DNA from: Bacteroidota bacterium | GTDB taxonomy: Bacteria > Bacteroidota > Bacteroidia > Chitinophagales > Saprospiraceae | DNA length: 64,000 bases | Assembly: GCA_003045895.1 (NCBI GenBank) | Contig: PZPC01000021.1 | Span: 2,142-66,141 of the forward strand | Direction: 5' to 3' | Part shown: one piece after another, positions 18,903-47,812 of the stretch | Numbering within the stretch: position 1 is the first letter of the stretch | Layout: the number at the start of each line of letters is the position of its first letter | Made by a program: the position numbers and the translations under genes | Notes under the pieces: generated by a model | The model's input: only the letters and a program-made list of their open reading frames with translations | Told to the model about the DNA's origin: nothing | Database searches by the model: none

Positions 18903-19901
18903 ATGCGCACCCGTTCATTCGTTCTCGTCGGTACTCTTTTGCTCTTGGTCAGCCTGCTGAACAGCAGTTGCAAGTCCGAGCCACAACCACCCAAAACACC
19001 AGTCGTCATAAAACCACCAGTTAACATCCCCGCCTTCAACGCCGATACGGCTTACGCGTACATTGCGCAGCAAGTCGGTTTTGGCCCCCGCGTACTGGGT
19101 AGTGCGGGCCACGAAGCTTGTCGGGCCTGGTTGGTAGAGACCCTCAAGGCTACGGGCGCCCAGGTGATGGAGCAGACCTTCCAGGCCAACGTATATACGG
19201 GAAAATCTTATCCGGCGACCAATATCATCGCCCAGTTCAATCCGGAGGTGTCGGACCGCATCGTGCTCACTGCCCACTGGGATACCCGCCATATTGCCGA
19301 CAGCCCCCTGAGCACCGAACGCCGCGATGAACCAATCCTGGGTGCCGATGATGCCGGTAGTGGTACTGCGGTACTGCTGGAACTGGCCCGCCAACTGCAG
19401 GCCCAAAAAGTGGGCATCGGGATTGATATCGTCCTCTTCGACGCCGAAGACTACGGCGAAAGTGGGGGCGAAGCGACGTCCTATGGTCTCGGCAGCCAGT
19501 ACTGGGCGCGCAATCCGCATTCGCCCTACAAGCCTCGCTACGGCATTCTGCTCGACATGGTAGGCGCCAAAGGTGCACAATTCCCCATCGAGGCCTACAG
19601 CTACCAGTTTGCTCGTCCGGTGGTAGAGAAGGTCTGGTCTCTGGCCAAACGCATCGGCAAAGGCAACTACTTCCTGAACCAGCGCGGTGGCGGCATCACC
19701 GACGACCACTACTTCGTGAATACCATTGGCAATATTCCGATGATCGATATCATCAACCTATCTGGTGGCAAAGAATCGGCTTTTGGTGCCCACTGGCACA
19801 CCCACGACGACAACCTGGATATCATTGATAAGAATACCCTGCGCGCCGTGGGGCAGGTGCTGCTGGCGCTGCTCTATAAAGAGGACGCCGGGGAGATTTA
19901 G
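18903..19901 (+). CDS. M28-family zinc peptidase / glutaminyl-cyclase-like lipoprotein
   Basis: I moved the start to ATG 18903 (MRTRSFVLVGTLLLLVSLLNSSC, with a lipobox). It has M28 metal ligands (HWDTRH, GADDAGSG, FDAEDYG, HTHDD). Confidence 0.8.
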   Translation: MRTRSFVLVGTLLLLVSLLNSSCKSEPQPPKTPVVIKPPVNIPAFNADTAYAYIAQQVGFGPRVLGSAGHEACRAWLVETLKATGAQVMEQTFQANVYTGKSYPATNIIAQFNPEVSDRIVLTAHWDTRHIADSPLSTERRDEPILGADDAGSGTAVLLELARQLQAQKVGIGIDIVLFDAEDYGESGGEATSYGLGSQYWARNPHSPYKPRYGILLDMVGAKGAQFPIEAYSYQFARPVVEKVWSLAKRIGKGNYFLNQRGGGITDDHYFVNTIGNIPMIDIINLSGGKESAFGAHWHTHDDNLDIIDKNTLRAVGQVLLALLYKEDAGEI

Positions 19902-19946
19902 GCAGATTTGCCCAGGACTTAGTTTTTGAAAATTTTTGTTATTTGA

Positions 19947-19978
19947 TTTGCAAAAACAAACATTTAAAAGTATATTTA
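19947..19978 (+). promoter_or_regulatory. Bacteroidota-type promoter-like site (TTTG-N20-TATATTTA) for repeat copy 1
   Basis: TTTG at 19947-19950 and TATATTTA at 19971-19978. The same arrangement is conserved in copy 2. Confidence 0.4.
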
Positions 19979-19983
19979 CCACG

Positions 19984-20232
19984 TAAGTTGAAAGCAATTT
20001 CTTTTTGACCACTTTTTAGCTTACTCATCGGTAACTACCCCTTGCGGTGACTCGTTTCGCCAGGTCAGCAAGGGCATTCAGCGGTTTTGTTTTCCTTGCT
20101 TGGTTGTTGGCAGTGCATAACTGGCAGCAATGGTGGTGGTTTGCCCCGTACGACCGGTTGGTCAGAAACGGGGCCGGCGTTCAGGCCTTGAGGGTGGGCC
20201 CCTCCCAAGGGGCTTTTACGCCCTGGCAATAA
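19984..20232 (+). ncRNA. Candidate structured ncRNA, copy 1 (family not recognised; ends approximate)
   Basis: Paralog of 41493-41740. The cores are almost invariant (20055-20149 has one substitution; 20176-20214 is identical). Five predicted hairpins differ between copies only by wobble-compatible or loop changes. It lies in a 763-bp gap between convergent genes. Confidence 0.45.
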
Positions 20233-20438
20233 ATTCCCCCTCAAAATCGTCGCAAGCTCCAGCCTTCGATAAAATTTTAAGCGGCCTTCCGCCCGCAGTA
20301 TAATCCTACCCACATTTTCATCTCTGACCAATTGTTATAAGGGCTCTTATGACTTATCTTGCCAGCCCGGCAATGTATAAATTCAGCCCCGGCCAGTAGG
20401 CCATATGATACGGTATCGTAGGCTAGTGATAATTAGCA

Positions 20439-20614
20439 GGTAGACCTCCGAGGTTCGCACTATTCAAAGGAGTGCAGAAAGTAAAGATATCGCTTTCTAG
20501 GTTGGGTAAACCTCGGAGGTCGGAGACCGCTGACCTCCGAGATTTACCCCTTGAAAAAGAAAGAAAAGTAACCCTGTTACTATCCTTAAATAGAATTAAT
20601 CTCGGAGGTCTACC
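20439..20614. repeat. Nested palindrome / MITE-like element built from four copies of a CCTCCGAG-containing unit
   Basis: The outer arms are ggtagacctccgag (20439-20452) and ctcggaggtctacc (20601-20614). The inner hairpin is gggtaaacctcggaggtc (20504-20521) and gacctccgagatttaccc (20532-20549), 18 bp with 1 mismatch and a 10-nt loop. There are also small hairpins at 20476-20498 and 20569-20581. Confidence 0.6.
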
Positions 20615-20664
20615 CAGCGGGAGCGGCGCCCTTAAAGGGCTGCCTATTTTTACCTGTCAGACAA

Positions 20665-22962
20665 TCACTCCGCCGCTTCCAACCGCACCACAATCCGCTT
20701 CGAAGCGGGCGTTTTGCTGTCCTTGTCGTGGCTGCCGATGGGTACCAGCACGTTGACTTCGGGGAAGTAGGCGGCCAGGCAGCGGCGGGGGATGGCGTAG
20801 GGTACGAGCAGGAAGTTCTCGGCTACGCGCCGTTGGTCACCGTGTTCGTTGATCAGCTGCACGATTTGTTGGGCCTGCCAGCCGCGGTCGGCCATGTCTT
20901 CGGGGTTCATAAACACCACGCGACGCTCGTTTTTAACGCCCCGGTAGCGGTCGTTGAGGCCGTAGATGGTGGTATTGAACTGGTCGTGGCTGCGCACCGA
21001 CGTCAGGATGTACTCGTCATCCGCCAGCTGCTGCACCGGCACCGAATTGATGGTAAACAATGCTTTCCCGGCGGGCGTCGGAAAGTGCCCTTCGCGGGGA
21101 TCATTCGGCAGGTAAAAACCGCTTTCTTCCCGGACCTTTTCGTTGAAATTTTCGAATCCCTCGACCGTGTGGGCAATTCCGTCGCGCACGAGGTCATAAT
21201 TGCCGATCCACTGTTCCCAGTTGACGGGTCGTTCGCTGCCGAGCGTGGCGGCGGCCAGGCGGCCCACGATGGCCGGTTCGCTCAGCAGGGCGGCCGACCG
21301 CGGCGCAAGGATACCCTTGCTGCGGTGCACCACCCCCATGCTATCTTCGACGGTCACGAACTGCTCGCCTTCGGCCTGCAGGTCGATTTCGGTACGCCCC
21401 AGGCAAGGCAGGATCAGCGCCGTTTGTCCGTGTACGAGGTGGCTGCGGTTGAGTTTGGTACTCACGTGGGCCGTGAGCCGACACCGGGTGAGGGCGGCGG
21501 CCGTGTAGGCGGTGTCGGGGGAAGCCGACAAGAAGTTGCCCCCCAGGGCAAAAAACACCCCAATTTTACCGGCGTGCATGGCCTGGATGGCATCCACCGT
21601 GCCCAGGCCGTGGGCGCGGGGCGGGTTGATGTGGAAATTGTCGGCCAGCCGGTCCAGGAATTCGGGCTGGGGCGCTTCCCAGATGCCCACCGTCCGGTTG
21701 CCCTGCACGTTGCTGTGGCCGCGAACGGGACAAGCGCCGGAGCCTGGCTTGCCGAAGGCGCCTTTGAAGAGGAGCAGGTTGACGATCTCCTGCACGTTGT
21801 CGACGCCATTTTCGTGCTGGGTAATGCCCATGGCCCAACAGACGATCATGCTTTTGGCCTTGCGGATCATTTCTACCGCCGCCAGAATCTGGGGGCGGGG
21901 TACGCCGCTGGCTGTGGCCAGGGTGTTGAAATCCTGCTTGCGCAAATCTTCGATGAAGGCTTCGTAGCCCAGGGTCTTGTTGGTGATAAAATCCCAGTCG
22001 AGGAACTCGCCGCCCTGTTCGCGGTCCTGGTGCCAGAGCCGGAGCATGATGGCCTTGAGGAGCGCGATATCGCCGTTGACGGCGACGGGCAGGTGGAGGT
22101 CGGCGAGGGCGGTGCCGCCCCGGAGAATTTTTGCGGGGCTTTGCGGATCCACAAAGCGCACCAACCCCGCTTCTTCCAGTGGATTGATGGCGATAATCTG
22201 GCCGCCGTTTTCCTTGCATTTTTCCAGTGCCGACAGCATGCGGGGGTGGTTGGTACCCGGATTCTGGCCGATGACGAGGATGAGGTCCGACTGGTAGAGG
22301 TCCTGGAGTTTGACCGTTCCTTTGCCGATGCCGATGGTGCGCGACAGGCCTACGCCCGTGGATTCGTGGCACATGTTGGAGCAGTCGGGCAGGTTGTTGG
22401 TCCCAAAGGCACGGACAAAAAGCTGGTACATAAAGGCCGCCTCGTTGCTGGTGCGGCCCGAAGTGTAGAAGACCGCCGCGTGGGGCGAGGGCAGGTGGTT
22501 GAGTTCAGCAGCCACGAGTTCAAAAGCTTCGTTCCAGCTGATGGGCGCGTAGTGGGTAGCGCCGGCGCGCAGGACGAGCGGTTCGGCCAGCCGACCGGCT
22601 TTGCCCAGCTTGAAATCGGACCAGGTGCCTAGTTCTGCTACCGAATGCTGGGCGAAGAAATCGGCGCCAATGGTTTTCTTCTGTGCTTCTTCGCTGATGG
22701 CTTTGATGCCGTTTTCGCAGTATTCGCCGATCTTGCTGCGGTCGTCATCGGGATCGGGCCAGGCACAACCCGGGCAATCGATCCCACCTTTCTGGTTGAG
22801 CTGTAGGGATGCCCGCAGCGCTTCGCCCGGCCGCATGTAGGTAGCGGCATGGCCCACCGCTGCCACCACGGCAGGGATGCCTGAGGACTTGCGTTTGGGC
22901 TTTTTGATCTTCAAACCCGTATGCTCGGTAGGGGTATTGAACGGTGGCTGCTGCTCTGACAT
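20665..22962 (-). CDS. FdhF/YdeP-family molybdopterin oxidoreductase
   Basis: About 765 aa. The N-terminus is typical of YdeP (GIPAVVAAVGHA...NQKGGIDCPGCAWPD). Molybdopterin oxidoreductase and dinucleotide-binding regions follow. I preferred the ATG at 22962 (MSEQQPPF) over the TTG at 22986. Confidence 0.85.
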   Translation of the reverse strand: MSEQQPPFNTPTEHTGLKIKKPKRKSSGIPAVVAAVGHAATYMRPGEALRASLQLNQKGGIDCPGCAWPDPDDDRSKIGEYCENGIKAISEEAQKKTIGADFFAQHSVAELGTWSDFKLGKAGRLAEPLVLRAGATHYAPISWNEAFELVAAELNHLPSPHAAVFYTSGRTSNEAAFMYQLFVRAFGTNNLPDCSNMCHESTGVGLSRTIGIGKGTVKLQDLYQSDLILVIGQNPGTNHPRMLSALEKCKENGGQIIAINPLEEAGLVRFVDPQSPAKILRGGTALADLHLPVAVNGDIALLKAIMLRLWHQDREQGGEFLDWDFITNKTLGYEAFIEDLRKQDFNTLATASGVPRPQILAAVEMIRKAKSMIVCWAMGITQHENGVDNVQEIVNLLLFKGAFGKPGSGACPVRGHSNVQGNRTVGIWEAPQPEFLDRLADNFHINPPRAHGLGTVDAIQAMHAGKIGVFFALGGNFLSASPDTAYTAAALTRCRLTAHVSTKLNRSHLVHGQTALILPCLGRTEIDLQAEGEQFVTVEDSMGVVHRSKGILAPRSAALLSEPAIVGRLAAATLGSERPVNWEQWIGNYDLVRDGIAHTVEGFENFNEKVREESGFYLPNDPREGHFPTPAGKALFTINSVPVQQLADDEYILTSVRSHDQFNTTIYGLNDRYRGVKNERRVVFMNPEDMADRGWQAQQIVQLINEHGDQRRVAENFLLVPYAIPRRCLAAYFPEVNVLVPIGSHDKDSKTPASKRIVVRLEAAE

Positions 22963-26493: not shown

Positions 26494-27006
26494 CTAAAGA
26501 ATCTTAATCTGCAATCTCCGACCAAACCCTCCTTCAATTATCCTGGTTAAAGTGGCTAATTCTATACCTGATTTATTATTCTCTAGTCGGGAAATATAAT
26601 GTTTTGAGGTGCCGCTTTTCGCAGCTAATTCTTCCTGCGTGAGCCCTAAATCTTTTCTTGCCTGTTTGATCATCAGTCCTATTTCCAGGCCTCTTGATGG
26701 ATCTGCCTCACTTAATTCATACATCACGATCGAATCCAGATCATAATAATCAACAACTCGTTTGCCTGTTTCATCCAACCATTCAATTTCAATATTCTTC
26801 CACGTTAATGCGCCATCTCTTAATTCAACTTTTTGGAATTCGGCTACTGATTCAAGCAATTTATATTCTAAATCTCCTTGTTTTATTTTCCAGGTCGTGA
26901 ATATTTTTTCAAAATCAATTATTCTTGATTCTCCTGTATTGAAAAGACAATACATCTTGTATCCTTTTATTTCATGAATTTTGATTATCCTTCTTACCGT
27001 TCTCAT
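26494..27006 (-). CDS. DUF2442 domain fused to an XRE-type helix-turn-helix (antitoxin-like)
   Basis: 170 aa. The N-terminal 100 aa or so are DUF2442-like (IHEIKGYKMYCLFNTGESRIIDF...). The C-terminus is HTH_3 (IKQARKDLGLTQEELAAKSGTSKHYISRLENNK). There is an ATGA overlap with the upstream DUF4160 gene. Confidence 0.7.
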   Translation of the reverse strand: MRTVRRIIKIHEIKGYKMYCLFNTGESRIIDFEKIFTTWKIKQGDLEYKLLESVAEFQKVELRDGALTWKNIEIEWLDETGKRVVDYYDLDSIVMYELSEADPSRGLEIGLMIKQARKDLGLTQEELAAKSGTSKHYISRLENNKSGIELATLTRIIEGGFGRRLQIKIL

Positions 27007-27956: not shown

Positions 27957-28217
27957 TTACGGGTGGTGGAAAAACCCTATTTCCAAACCTCTTGATGGAT
28001 CTGCCTCACTTAATTCATACATCACGATCGAATCCAGATCATAATAATCAACAACTCGTTTGCCTGTTTCATCCAACCATTCAATTTCAATATTCTTCCA
28101 CGTTAATGCGCCATCTTTTAATTCAACTTTTTGGAATTCAGTTACTGCTTGATTATCAGCAACTAAAGAAGAGGAAAGCAGCTTTTTGATAGTATTTATC
28201 AACGACTTATCAACCAA
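27957..28217 (-). pseudogene. Remnant of a second DUF2442 gene
   Basis: 27976-28147 is about 97 percent identical to 26678-26849. The 86-codon ORF lacks the DUF2442 N-terminus and the HTH, and ends in unrelated residues (GFFHHP). Confidence 0.6.
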
Positions 28218-41301: not shown

Positions 41302-41457
41302 GGGTATGGTCTTTGTTTTTAATTAGGAAGTAGTCCCAAAGAAGGTTTTGACGCCTTAAAAATAAACGGTCCGCGGGTAAAAGTCAATTTTTTTTGCCAA
41401 CGCGATTAAGTATTTGGACAATAAGAAACTTACATTTAAAAATTTATGTTATTTTAT

Positions 41458-41488
41458 TTTGTAAAACAAACATTTTAAGGTATATTTA
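41458..41488 (+). promoter_or_regulatory. Bacteroidota-type promoter-like site (TTTG-N19-TATATTTA) for repeat copy 2
   Basis: TTTG at 41458-41461 and TATATTTA at 41481-41488. It is conserved with copy 1. Confidence 0.4.
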
Positions 41489-41492
41489 CACG

Positions 41493-41740
41493 GTAAGTTG
41501 AAGGCAACTTCCTTTTGATCCCCTTTCAGCTTACTCATCGGTAACTACCCCTTGCGGCGGACATCTTTCGCCAGGCCAGCAAGGGCATTCAGCGGTTTTG
41601 TTTTCCTTGCTTGGTTGTTGGCAGTGCATAACTGGCAGCAATGGTGGTGGTTTGCCCCGTGTGACCAGTGGGTCGGAAGTGGGGCTGGCGTTCAGGCCTT
41701 GAGGGTGGGCCCCTCCCAAGGGGCTCCTATGCCCCGGCAA
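41493..41740 (+). ncRNA. Candidate structured ncRNA / mRNA leader, copy 2 (ends approximate)
   Basis: Paralog of 19984-20232, oriented toward the GH16 gene that starts 220 nt downstream. Confidence 0.45.
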
Positions 41741-41960
41741 GAAATCTACCCGTTTCAGTCACCCTTCCAATCCTTATTATTCGCCGACCCCTAAGGGTCG
41801 CTATGGCCATAGCTCTTTCGCTTTAGCTTAGCCACAAAATTTGACCGCGCCTGAAACGTCTGTCTGATAGCCGACCCTATGACCCGTCCTTAATGCTTTT
41901 CCCCAATAAATGGCTTAATTTTGTATATTATTTCAGTAGTCTTTCAAAATCCAACTTAAC

Positions 41961-43577
41961 GTGCAAAACCTACTCCTCCCACTATTCTGCCTGTTTTTAC
42001 TCCCTCTATTTGCCCAGGTTCAAACCGTCGAAGACGACTTCGAAGGCAACGGGACCATCCTGAGCTGGTACGGCGACGACTGCGGCATGGACAATGCCGC
42101 GGCCAACCCTTTTCCCCAGGGCAGCAACACCTCGGCCACGGTGCTGGCCTACACCGATGCCGGCGGCCTCTACGCCAACGTAGGTTTCAATGTGTCGGAT
42201 AATTTCAACCTATCGGTTAACCACACCTTTTCGCTGAAAATTTACGTGCCGGGCAGCAGCATCACTGGCCAGCAGCCCCGCCAGCTGTCGCTCAAGCTGC
42301 AAAACGGAACCCTGGAGCAGCCCTGGAGTACCCAGAGTGAGATCATCAAACCCATCGTCCTGGACCAATGGCAAACCATCACCTTTGATTTTGCCAACGA
42401 TGCCTTTCTGAACCTGGAGCCCGGTTCCCCCGCTCCGACCAGCAGAACCGACTTCAACCGGATCATTCTGCAGGTCAATGGCGAGAACAACAACGACCTG
42501 GTGGTCGCCTACCTGGACGATTTCCTTTACGACGGAACGATTGGTTACGAATTCGACCCCTCCAACTCGATCTACAACCAACTGGTGTGGTCGGACGAAT
42601 TCAGCGGCAGCGGTGCGGTGGACGCCACCAAATGGCACCACCAAACCCGGCTACCCAACGGAGAGAGCTGGTTCAATGGAGAAGCCCAACACTACACCAA
42701 CCGCACCGCCAATTCCTCCGTGGCCGATGGCTTTTTAACGATCATGGCCAAAAAAGAGCAATTCACCGACCAGGGGCAAACCAAATCCTACACCTCCGCC
42801 CGGCTGAATTCCAAATTTGCCTTCACCTACGGACGCGTGGAGGTGCGGGCCAAACTGCCCATCGGCCTGGGCACCTGGCCCGCCATTTGGATGTTGGGTA
42901 AGAACATCAATGAACCCGGTGGCTACTGGGCCAGCACCCATGGTACCACTTCCTGGCCAGCCTGTGGCGAAATTGACATCATGGAACACTGGGGCTACAA
43001 CCAAAACTACGTGCAGAGCGCACTCCATACCCCGTCTTCATTCGGCGGTACGGTCAACCTGGGTGGTATCTGGGCGACCGATGTATCCAACGTTTTCCAC
43101 GTGTACGCCCTGGAATGGTCGCCGGAAGCCATGGAATTCAGCATCGACGGCAATGTATATTACACCTACGCCCCCAACCCGCAGAATGCAGCTACCTGGC
43201 CATTTGATGCCGATCAATATCTTTTGTTAAACGTGGCCATGTCGGGCTCCATTGCCCCCAATTTCACCCAGAGCCCCATGGTGGTAGACTACGTCCGGGT
43301 GTACCAGGAAAGTCCGACCGCTACGGCCGAATCAGCCGCGCTACCCAACGTTCGCTTGTTTCCCAATCCGGTAGTGGACAAATTGAATATGCGCGTTCCG
43401 GCCAGCCTGCTGGGTGCACAGGTGACAGTTTACACGGCGCTGGGCCAGGCGATCGCTACCTTTATCCAGGAGGAAGCAACCATGACTTTGGATTGGTCGG
43501 CCTACCCCCAGGGAACGTATTCCCTGACCTATACGACCAGCGCGGGGCAGACCACTTACAAGGTCGTGAAGCTATAA
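41961..43577 (+). CDS. GH16 beta-glucanase (laminarinase-like) with N-terminal carbohydrate-binding-like region and T9SS C-terminal sorting domain
   Basis: 538 aa with a GTG start and a signal peptide. It has the catalytic motif EIDIMEHWG (E-x-D-x-x-E) and a Por-type tail (VRLFPNPVVDKLNMRV...YKVVKL). Confidence 0.85.
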   Translation: MQNLLLPLFCLFLLPLFAQVQTVEDDFEGNGTILSWYGDDCGMDNAAANPFPQGSNTSATVLAYTDAGGLYANVGFNVSDNFNLSVNHTFSLKIYVPGSSITGQQPRQLSLKLQNGTLEQPWSTQSEIIKPIVLDQWQTITFDFANDAFLNLEPGSPAPTSRTDFNRIILQVNGENNNDLVVAYLDDFLYDGTIGYEFDPSNSIYNQLVWSDEFSGSGAVDATKWHHQTRLPNGESWFNGEAQHYTNRTANSSVADGFLTIMAKKEQFTDQGQTKSYTSARLNSKFAFTYGRVEVRAKLPIGLGTWPAIWMLGKNINEPGGYWASTHGTTSWPACGEIDIMEHWGYNQNYVQSALHTPSSFGGTVNLGGIWATDVSNVFHVYALEWSPEAMEFSIDGNVYYTYAPNPQNAATWPFDADQYLLLNVAMSGSIAPNFTQSPMVVDYVRVYQESPTATAESAALPNVRLFPNPVVDKLNMRVPASLLGAQVTVYTALGQAIATFIQEEATMTLDWSAYPQGTYSLTYTTSAGQTTYKVVKL

Positions 43578-46489: not shown

Positions 46490-46550
46490 GTGGTATTTCG
46501 ATAAGCTGCTTATATTTAGTGTTTGATTAGTAATGAAGCGTCAAAACCCA

Positions 46551-46657
46551 CTTAAACCGTATGATATGACCAGCATCGTCAGCAAGCCTTGGAGCCCAAT
46601 TTGGCAGCACCGCCGCCCTTACTTAAACCGTATGATATGACCAGCATCGTCAGCAAG
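46551..46657 (+). repeat. 36-bp perfect direct repeat (46551-46586 and 46622-46657) duplicating the start region of the HD gene
   Basis: cttaaaccgtatgatatgaccagcatcgtcagcaag occurs twice, 71 nt apart. Confidence 0.85.
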
Positions 46658-47812
46658 GCCGAACAGTTTGTGAAACAACTGCTGCAGGACAACCTTACCC
46701 CCGATCACTACTACCACAACCTACCCCATACGCTGGCAGTAGTGGATGCTGCCCGTTTGCTCTCGGCCCGCCACGAACTATCGGGGCAGGCCTGCGAGAC
46801 CATCGAGCTGGCGGCCTGGTTTCACGATACAGGCTTCACCCAAACCTACGAAGGACACGAAGAGGCCGGGGTAGAAATCGCCAAAGCTTTCCTGACCAAC
46901 GAAGGCTATCCGCAGGAAAATCTACCTACCCTGGAACGCTTGATCCTGGCCACTAAAGTGGGCCACCAACCCAACGATGAACTGGAAAAAATTATCCGCG
47001 ACGCCGACCTGAGCAATGTGGGCCGAGCCGACTACCTGGCGCTTCTCTCCGGGTTGCGCCACGAATGGGAGGTCTTCCGCAACGAAATCCACAAAGACCG
47101 CGCGTGGTATCAACTCAACTACGAATTCGTCAGGAACCACAAATACAATACCGCTATTGCCCAGGAAATTTATGGTATCCAACACAAACAAAACGAGCTC
47201 ACTTTAAAGAAACTGGCGGCCAAAAAGAAGAAGAAAAAAAAGAAGAAGCCCGAAAAAATAAATGACCGCACCGGCGACACCATCGGCACCAATCGCAGTG
47301 CACAGATGATGTTTAAAACCGCCTTGCGCAACCACATGGACCTCAGCAACCTGGCCGACAACAAAGCCAACATCATGCTTTCGGTTAATGCCCTGATCGT
47401 CACCATTGCCGTACCGCTGGCAGCGGGCTACGTGAATGATGCCCCCCACCTGATGGTCCCCGTCATCATCTTACTGCTGACGTGCCTGTGCTCTATGATC
47501 TTTGCCACCCTGGCCACCCGCCCCATCCCCATGACCGGGCTTACTACCCAGGAAGATATCTTGCAAGGACGCTCCAACCTTTTCTTTTTTGGCAACTTCT
47601 ACCGCATGAGCCTGCCGGAATACGACCAGGGAATGAACAACGTCATCAAAGATGACGACAGCCTGGAGTCGGCCATCAAACGCGACCTCTATTTCTTGGG
47701 CCGCTCACTCGGAAAAAAATACAACCAGTTGCGCATTTGCTACAACCTCTTCATGATCGGGGTCGTATTATCCGTGGTGTTATTCGGGGTGAGTTATGCC
47801 ATTTTTCAGTAG
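46637..47812 (+). CDS. HD-domain phosphohydrolase fused to a C-terminal 2TM module (DUF5706 / Pycsar-effector-like)
   Basis: I moved the start to ATG 46637 (MTSIVSKAEQF...). HD motifs are HNLPHTLAV and AAWFHDTGF. A poly-Lys linker (KKKKKKKKK) follows. The C-terminal region has two TM helices and NLADNKANIMLSVNALIV...FFFGNF...YNLFMIGVVLS. The family name is from memory. Confidence 0.75.
   Translation: MTSIVSKAEQFVKQLLQDNLTPDHYYHNLPHTLAVVDAARLLSARHELSGQACETIELAAWFHDTGFTQTYEGHEEAGVEIAKAFLTNEGYPQENLPTLERLILATKVGHQPNDELEKIIRDADLSNVGRADYLALLSGLRHEWEVFRNEIHKDRAWYQLNYEFVRNHKYNTAIAQEIYGIQHKQNELTLKKLAAKKKKKKKKKPEKINDRTGDTIGTNRSAQMMFKTALRNHMDLSNLADNKANIMLSVNALIVTIAVPLAAGYVNDAPHLMVPVIILLLTCLCSMIFATLATRPIPMTGLTTQEDILQGRSNLFFFGNFYRMSLPEYDQGMNNVIKDDDSLESAIKRDLYFLGRSLGKKYNQLRICYNLFMIGVVLSVVLFGVSYAIFQ

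Follow-up and report, generated by a model that had tools for sequence, protein, structure and literature searches.

A family of structured non-coding RNA genes, each with its own promoter, would account for a repeat that occurs twice in the 64,000-nt stretch of DNA analyzed here (the window) and in at least 11 further copies elsewhere. The likeliest role of these genes would be to supply an RNA that acts in trans and is dosed through gene copy number, and we regard this reading, which comes from sequence comparison, as fairly probable. The observations behind it are the copy number itself, a common promoter motif, the loss of reading frames, helices maintained strand-specifically by compensatory changes, and an RNA body that changes much more slowly than the flank co-duplicated with it.

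Identification of a dispersed repeat family

Copy 1 (19925–20240) and copy 2 (41435–41750) both lie on the plus strand and are 88% identical over 311 nt (88.1% by blastn), and a repeat search recovered them as two pieces, 20055–20234 / 41566–41745 (180 nt, 92%) and 19925–20047 / 41435–41557 (123 nt, 85%). An earlier note on this DNA had described a same-strand repeat of 19916–20232 at 41427–41740; the repeat was borne out by alignment, repeat search and blastn, but the limits were not, the actual unit being slightly larger, from ~19922 to 20260. As that note had also stated, pairwise alignment placed a single difference in the 95-nt block 20055–20149 (T/C, at GGTCAG/GGCCAG) and none in the 39-nt block 20176–20214, which is identical in both copies. 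A 31-nt core probe matched the two copies alone in the window (chance expectation 0.00).

The pair is not a two-copy duplication, as had been supposed, but belongs to a dispersed family with at least 13 members. A scan of JGI metagenome contigs with a pattern for the loop of hairpin P5 (described below) returned 26 loci, 10 of which were chance matches and 16 of which carried the element. Once contigs of two sample sets that were identical or nearly identical had been collapsed, these 16 loci gave 11 further distinct copies, 83–92% identical to copy 1 and located on different contigs of the same assemblies, so that with the two in the window the family comprises at least 13 distinct copies; one 159-kb contig holds two. 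Divergence from copy to copy is 5–17%. Ten copies are of A type and three of B type, in which the 3′ part is replaced by another repeat; copies replaced in this way include those on contigs L098 and L099. Two distinct copies are 5′-truncated and promoterless, one on L093 and the other at the locus represented by L080, L083 and L095, where the copy begins directly after the argS stop.

The tetranucleotide correlation to the window was 0.86–0.97 for the copy-bearing contigs and 0.20–0.77 for controls, other Saprospiraceae included, compared with 0.96 between the two halves of the window. Because of this matching signature and the shared assemblies, the copies were taken as one population genome, and thus as a dispersed paralogous family in one uncultured Saprospiraceae (Lewinella-like) population. 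DNA identical to the window is found on two JGI metagenome contigs, and the best named relative of the flanking proteins is Lewinella sp. LCG006 (69–75% amino-acid identity; family Saprospiraceae).

No homologs outside this population were found in metagenome contigs, genome contigs, plasmid and phage collections or contigs of relatives. Over 842 kb of collected contig sequence nhmmer gave no more copies, and a separate run on three later contigs, including two from further relatives, gave none. The element is absent from contigs carrying relatives of the neighbouring M28 peptidase (L001–L003 and L007; 69–74% identity), where a different gene lies downstream, and from those carrying relatives of the neighbouring oxidoreductase (L107 and L108; 76–77%). 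A P6-loop pattern, YRGCAGTGCATAACTGGYRRY, had 41 matches in genome contigs, all by chance, in a collection of GTDB representatives that does not include the source genome; three core 17-mers had chance matches only among viral sequences, and blastn in distant mode found no match in plasmid and phage collections. Two 33-nt viral matches (L015 and L023) were rejected as they lie in phage coding sequence. The best reading of this distribution would be a recent, lineage-restricted expansion of the RNA gene family.

Promoter, unit edges and 3′ tail

The promoter block of copy 1 occupies 19922–19982 on the plus strand, with an AT-rich upstream part, TTTG at 19947–19950, a 20-nt spacer and TATATTTA at 19971–19978, and that of copy 2 occupies 41433–41492 on the plus strand, with TTTG at 41458–41461, a 19-nt spacer and TATATTTA at 41481–41488. 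Both strings read in the earlier note, TTTG-N20-TATATTTA in copy 1 and TTTG-N19-TATATTTA in copy 2, were thereby verified, and the Bacteroidota-type promoter that it had proposed proved to be conserved across the full-length copies of the family: all 11 share TTTG, 19–20 nt and TATATTTR, with the consensus AAAATttaTgTT.tTTtttTTg.AAAAAcAAACATTTtaAAGTATATTTat, in which GTATATT is invariant, and in all 11 the −33 T-tract with its G stands at fixed spacing. Bacteroidota promoters are of the −33 TTTG / −7 TAnnTTTG type, and we take the family promoter to fit it. Transcription would start at ~19983 in copy 1 and ~41493 in copy 2.

In every pairwise comparison the left edge of the unit was constant, at about −150 from an anchor at window position 20072. 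This edge lies ~60 nt upstream of the inferred transcription start, indicating that the unit begins where the complete promoter begins. The right edge varied, from +170 to +190 for most pairs to +370 to +416 for two subgroups, and was +130 for the three B-type copies.

The structured body is followed by a C-rich, G-poor tail, at 20227–20330 in copy 1 (plus strand; C 35.6% and G 13.3% over +166 to +255) and at 41738–41840 in copy 2 (plus strand; C 34.4% and G 15.6%). In 10 of 10 A-type copies the 90 nt after hairpin P8 contain 33–42% C and 11–22% G, with C about equal to G in the body, and the excess of C over G persists where the tails cannot be aligned. No intrinsic terminator at the element end was conserved across copies, and no terminator-like site was found in the tail of copy 2. 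From a C-rich, G-poor tail that lacks an intrinsic terminator we infer Rho-dependent termination, for which the tail would be a rut-like Rho-loading region. The string GCTRTCGAATCT was considered as a mark of the 3′ end of the family and rejected, being present only in L096/L105 and L098/L099.

Structure and constraint of the predicted RNA body

The predicted RNA is ~245–260 nt in length, and its structured body lies on the plus strand at 19983–20226 in copy 1, its start being that of the predicted transcript, and at 41493–41737 in copy 2 (from the alignment column map and helix pairing in copy 1, and from alignment, RNAalifold and helix pairing in copy 2). It begins with the 5′ hairpin P1 (19983–20024; 41493–41534), followed by the long-range helix P2 (20028 to 20226 in copy 1) and by P3 (20033 to 20141; 41543 to 41652), which encloses P4 (20046–20061; 41556–41572), P5 (20067–20100 with an 18-nt loop at 20075–20092; 41578–41611 with its loop at 41586–41603) and P6 (20103–20131; 41614–41642). 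P7 (20143–20174; 41654–41685) and P8 (20176–20222; 41687–41733) then follow, all of these helices being on the plus strand.

In the two window copies RNAalifold predicted 82 pairs, with 9 one-sided wobble-preserving changes, no broken pair and no two-sided compensatory change. The claim of the earlier note that every difference placed in a helix preserves pairing was thus correct for these two copies; with 13 copies it no longer held, as a small number of mismatches in P5, and likewise in P3, are not compensated. Since no two-sided compensatory change separates the two copies, they prove little on structure. The comparison of 13 copies, on the other hand, supported the proposal of a structured RNA, with several hairpins kept by compensatory changes. 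P1, P4, P6 and P7 form in every copy although their sequences differ: in P1, U-A is replaced by A-U in L084 and L099 and G-C by U-A in L105; in P7, GACC/GGUC is replaced by GGCU/AGCC in L095 and L101; and P6 is rebuilt in L098, where G-C is replaced by C-G.

For quantification, a 13-sequence alignment with a hand-defined 77-pair structure was used, and a second alignment, in which P1 was misaligned, was left out of the pair counts. Across the 13 copies 94.2% of cells pair, a value reached by none of 500 shuffles (0/500), two-sided changes occur at 7 pairs (matched by 6/500 shuffles), and the covariation score was 0.128 compared with 0.107 in the control (0/500 shuffles). When the partners were slid, pairing dropped to 36–54%. 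G-U pairs make up 17.5% of cells, which is why the same helices pair in only 78.4% of cells on the minus strand compared with 94.2% on the plus strand. This strand-specific pairing matches the orientation of the promoter and argues for an RNA rather than a DNA structure. Folding-energy z-scores were weak (mean −1.0 vs shuffles), and alternative folds exist for the long-range pairs P2 and P3 and for P8. Most of the RNA is too conserved for covariation, and all sequences are related paralogs from one population. The fold that RNAalifold gave for the 13 sequences was different and less convincing, the truncated and B-type copies disturbing the alignment, and it was not adopted.

Variable sites are concentrated in the P4 and P7 loops and at compensating stem positions, with no variation in the P6 loop or at the junctions. 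Mean pairwise identity was 94% in the core, where the P5 loop is invariant in part because the scan pattern selected for it, 96% in the 5′ part of P8 (P8a, +104 to +131), 83% in P7, 76% in P1, 76% in the promoter and 58% in unrelated upstream DNA. For the older pairs (L081 vs L105 and L096), the body was 89–91% identical and the co-duplicated 3′ tail 66–67%. The pair L096 and L105 showed mosaic identity (promoter 72%, body 91%, tail 92%), indicating that recombination among copies also occurs, and gene conversion may explain part of the core identity.

Coding capacity, known RNA families and gene neighbourhood

Regarding the small Trp-rich ORF that overlaps the body, the earlier note had argued that it is not coding and had named its retention in homologs of other genomes, with synonymous-biased changes, as an observation against the RNA interpretation. 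Across the copies compared here the frame is not retained, in line with that argument: it has no ATG, and its start is shifted between copies by a 1-nt indel; every frame is broken by core indels, of 1 nt in L084, L096 and L098 and, as a deletion, of 2 nt in L099; stops are not conserved, and the changes between copy 1 and copy 2 are almost all non-synonymous. With the translations of all six frames joined into one query, a search of 5.8 billion proteins gave no match at E ≤ 1. These observations support a non-coding element.

The absence of a known RNA signature, which the note had reported by eye, was upheld by the Rfam search that it had proposed and by ARAGORN. Rfam 15 had no match over the whole window at gathering thresholds, and in E-value mode copy 1, copy 2 and the copy on L105 had only sub-threshold matches of 10–24 bits, to eukaryotic miRNA and lncRNA models and to bacterial sRNA and leader models of unrelated families; ARAGORN found no tRNA or tmRNA. 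Judged by these searches, the family matches no catalogued RNA family.

The neighbours of the copies are unrelated housekeeping genes in either orientation, several of them convergent, and include ArgRS, a CoA-transferase, a GH65-like enzyme, BioA, and SurA-like and imelysin-like proteins. This agrees with the earlier view that the element is not tied to a downstream gene and argues against a cis-regulatory leader. Downstream of copy 2, a GH16 gene with a T9SS tail starts at 41961, behind its own AT-rich promoter-like stretch. No sites complementary to the P5 loop were found in the window besides the copies themselves.

Presence and absence of copy 1 and associated repeats

Copy 1 lies between the convergent genes of an M28 peptidase (ending at 19901) and an FdhF/YdeP-type molybdopterin oxidoreductase (ending at 20665). 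The earlier note had given this gap as 763 bp and unusually long; the length stands, and the unusual size is now reinterpreted as a 765-bp block (19907–20671, neither strand) that contains copy 1 and its 3′ flank and is missing in a sister species. The sister contig, L106, aligns to 25631–20672 (92.3%) and 7 nt later to 19906–19509 (89.2%), its oxidoreductase is 96% identical in amino acids and 92% in nucleotides to that of the window, and the two convergent stop codons overlap in it. The absence of this block may open a reading of the family as a mobile or duplicative element.

Both junctions of the block show a 4-nt CAGA microhomology. The oxidoreductase ends with ...LEAAE* in the window and with ...LEAAVTSA* in the sister species, and LEAAEG in an outgroup resembles the LEAAE of the window. 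By this comparison, the indel carrying copy 1 rewrote the last codons (20665–20671) of the conserved oxidoreductase. Because its C-terminus is variable among relatives, insertion and deletion of the block are indistinguishable. A distance of 15 nt separates the left breakpoint from the left edge of the family, which fits insertion, and the breakpoint also adjoins the M28 stop codon. Neither terminal inverted repeats nor clear target duplications were present at the aligned ends of the 11 copies.

Several other repeats accompany the element or lie in the same DNA. Inside the 765-bp block, a nested palindromic MITE/REP-like repeat occupies 20439–20613 (175 nt, neither strand; fold z = −7.9), whose inverted termini of 17 bp, GGTAGACCTCCGAGGTT / AATCTCGGAGGTCTACC, enclose a further inverted repeat; it contains the motif GACCTCCGAGG 4 times, compared with 0.87 expected for the whole window, and a 56-nt piece of it recurs in the same genome (L093, 284–339). 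It looks like a family separate from the RNA gene. On the minus strand of L098 (~652–420) and L099 (~349–120) and in L083 from +133, the element is cut in the middle of P8 and continues into a ~235-nt unit that contains an inverted repeat, GAGCTTGCCACGCTTTTTAGCGT / ACGCTAAAAAGCGTGGCAAGCTC; an ORF for an IS4-like transposase follows ~500 nt further on in L083. The break point common to these three paralogs suggests either a repeat that targets this hairpin or one event that was later copied. L081, L096 and L105 have in common a GC-rich palindromic stretch, GGCCGCCGCCGCGGCGGCGCC ... CCCGCAGGGGGGCGCCC, at +330 to +416, which may be another repeat travelling with the element. L104 and L105 carry tandem 102-nt units ~2 kb upstream of the element, whose register differs between sample sets, and a single 102-nt unit just upstream of the RNA gene (−368 to −268). 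Elsewhere in the window, a 175-nt direct repeat (26678–26852 / 27976–28150, 97%) lies in a low-GC island (~26–30 kb, GC 0.42–0.47), the former inside the ORF 26494–27006 on the minus strand and the latter looking like a fragment of the same gene, and a perfect 37-nt direct repeat (46550–46586 / 46621–46657, starts 71 nt apart) flanks the start of the ORF 46589–47812 on the plus strand.

Alternative explanations

An mRNA of a small protein, such as a type I toxin whose hydrophobic, Trp-rich stretch would be FSGFVFLAWLLAVHNWQQWWWF, would account for both the copy number and the heavy structure, type I toxin loci being often multicopy; a 61/80-aa ORF with a hydrophobic stretch spans the invariant core in both window copies, and the same frame is open for 110–117 aa in L094 and L105. 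This reading is close to refuted by the lack of an ATG and the start that varies with a 1-nt indel, the core indels of L084, L096, L098 and L099 that break this and all other frames, the unconserved stops and almost entirely non-synonymous changes, the empty six-frame search at E ≤ 1, and the source's own JGI contig, on which no gene is called here. We likewise give very little weight to a cis-acting leader, attenuator or riboswitch for a downstream gene: copy 1 and the copies on L093, L094 and L096 face a convergent gene, and the genes that do lie downstream are functionally unrelated (GH16, amine-oxidase-like, SurA-like and others) and separated by spacers of several hundred nucleotides, GH16 having its own promoter-like stretch, even though a same-strand gene lies 380–870 nt downstream of copy 2, L081, L084 and L105, and no terminator turned up on the way from copy 2 to the GH16 gene. 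A dispersed repeat of no function, in which gene conversion maintains the similarity and the promoter-like and hairpin features are incidental, would fit the mosaic identity of L096 and L105, the weak folding z-scores and the confinement to a single population; it is nonetheless improbable in view of the variation that falls in the P4 and P7 loops and at compensating stem sites while the P6 loop and junctions stay fixed, the canonical promoter that all 11 full copies keep at constant spacing, and the C over G skew kept even in tails that cannot be aligned.

More weight, as a serious although still unlikely alternative, goes to the unit being primarily a DNA element that moves or duplicates non-autonomously, in effect a selfish ‘cuckoo’ RNA gene; its promoter and structure would then promote its propagation, or be passengers, and would not perform a regulatory role in the host. 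This partly overlaps with the main reading and is not exclusive of it. The dispersal of at least 13 intergenic copies among unrelated neighbours points in this direction, as do the constant left edge (about −150) with a right edge varying from +130 to +416, the 5′-truncated (L093; L080/L083/L095) and 3′-replaced (L098 and L099) copies, the co-occurrence with other repeats, and the absence of the block with copy 1 from a sister species at 92% nucleotide identity, with CAGA at both junctions and an altered oxidoreductase C-terminus; the copies differ from one another by 5–17%, a level comparable to that of the species split. Weighing against it, terminal inverted repeats and clear target duplications are lacking, no transposase, TnpB or IscB lies in or beside the copies except for the unrelated IS4-like ORF at one locus, and the polarity of the sister-species indel is ambiguous, the outgroup LEAAEG resembling the LEAAE of the window. 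Furthermore, the left edge falls where the complete promoter begins, an outcome also expected from selection on a gene; conservation is far higher in the RNA body than in the flank duplicated with it; and the structure is strand-specific and uses G-U pairs. A self-propagating RNA gene, copied at the DNA level in a one-ended manner (fixed left end, variable right end), appears distinctly unlikely; in such a version the RNA itself might be the guide, scaffold or ribozyme partner of a trans-encoded mobilizing enzyme. If true, this would represent a novel type of non-autonomous element in bacteria, with an RNA and not inverted repeats as its defining feature.

Proposed organization and action of the RNA genes

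For the preferred reading, a family of trans-acting RNA genes, each unit would consist of a ~60-bp Bacteroidota sigma-A-type promoter, the 5′ hairpin P1, a multi-helix core, P7 and P8, and the C-rich tail. The predicted transcript would run from ~19983 in copy 1 and ~41493 in copy 2 and be ended by Rho on the tail. The RNA would act in trans, in a regulatory or protein-binding capacity, and the number of gene copies would multiply its dose. The interaction surface would be the near-invariant core, with the P5 and P6 loops as part of it, and P1, P4 and P7 would be needed only as helices. If expressed, the family would offer a tractable case for studying the mechanism of, and the reasons for, the amplification of a bacterial RNA gene beyond 10 copies, and for mobile-like spread; if it is only a repeat, it still accounts for long intergenic gaps in this genome.

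Comparison with known systems

REP/BIME, ERIC, Correia and BOX/RUP elements have terminal inverted repeats or palindromic units, occur in both orientations inside other transcripts, and have no complete dedicated promoter at a fixed end. The present family resembles REP/MITE repeats in its many intergenic copies, in presence and absence between close relatives and in stable hairpins, but differs from them in that it has no inverted termini or target duplications and that its helices rely on G-U pairs of one strand. HEARO/IscB omega RNA and IS605-orfB/TnpB reRNA adjoin or overlap iscB or tnpB and have a variable guide at one end. They are 150–300 nt in length, and the present family is like them in being multicopy, of a size within that range and multi-helix, with sharp element boundaries; unlike them, it has no iscB or tnpB near any copy, no variable guide-like segment abutting the scaffold and no Rfam match.

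Rhizobiales ‘cuckoo’ sRNAs, Qrr, LhrC and csRNA are near-identical, independently promoted genes scattered in intergenic regions. Such cuckoo or sibling sRNAs are 80–150 nt in length, usually have Rho-independent terminators and are conserved across genera. The sibling-sRNA description, several homologous copies at unrelated loci of one genome, applies to the 13 copies found here, which are likewise scattered in unrelated intergenic regions, the full-length ones with a promoter motif of their own, whereas the RNA is longer and the family so far confined to one population.

To our knowledge, multicopy regulatory RNA families in Bacteroidota have been characterized essentially only in gut Bacteroides, as FopS. 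In Bacteroides thetaiotaomicron, FopS comprises 14 paralogous sRNAs of 65–70 nt with canonical sigma-A promoters, which repress susC translation, base-pair at the start codons of susC through a 5′ seed and bind RbpB, and dosage multiplexing has been proposed for the co-expressed paralogs (PMC11697453). The family described here is found in the same phylum with about the same copy number per genome, is mostly intergenic, carries a predicted sigma-A-type promoter at each full-length copy and contains no ORF. In contrast to FopS, its RNA is ~250 nt, about four times longer, with at least 7 helices, a 95-nt near-invariant core and no intrinsic terminator, and thus lies outside the short (<~150 nt) seed-RNA format. 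No sequence relationship between the two was apparent from their descriptions. The present family would add an example from an environmental Saprospiraceae that is unrelated, much larger and more elaborate in its fold, set apart by its 95-nt near-invariant core, the lack of an intrinsic terminator and signs of a recent gain or loss between sister species.
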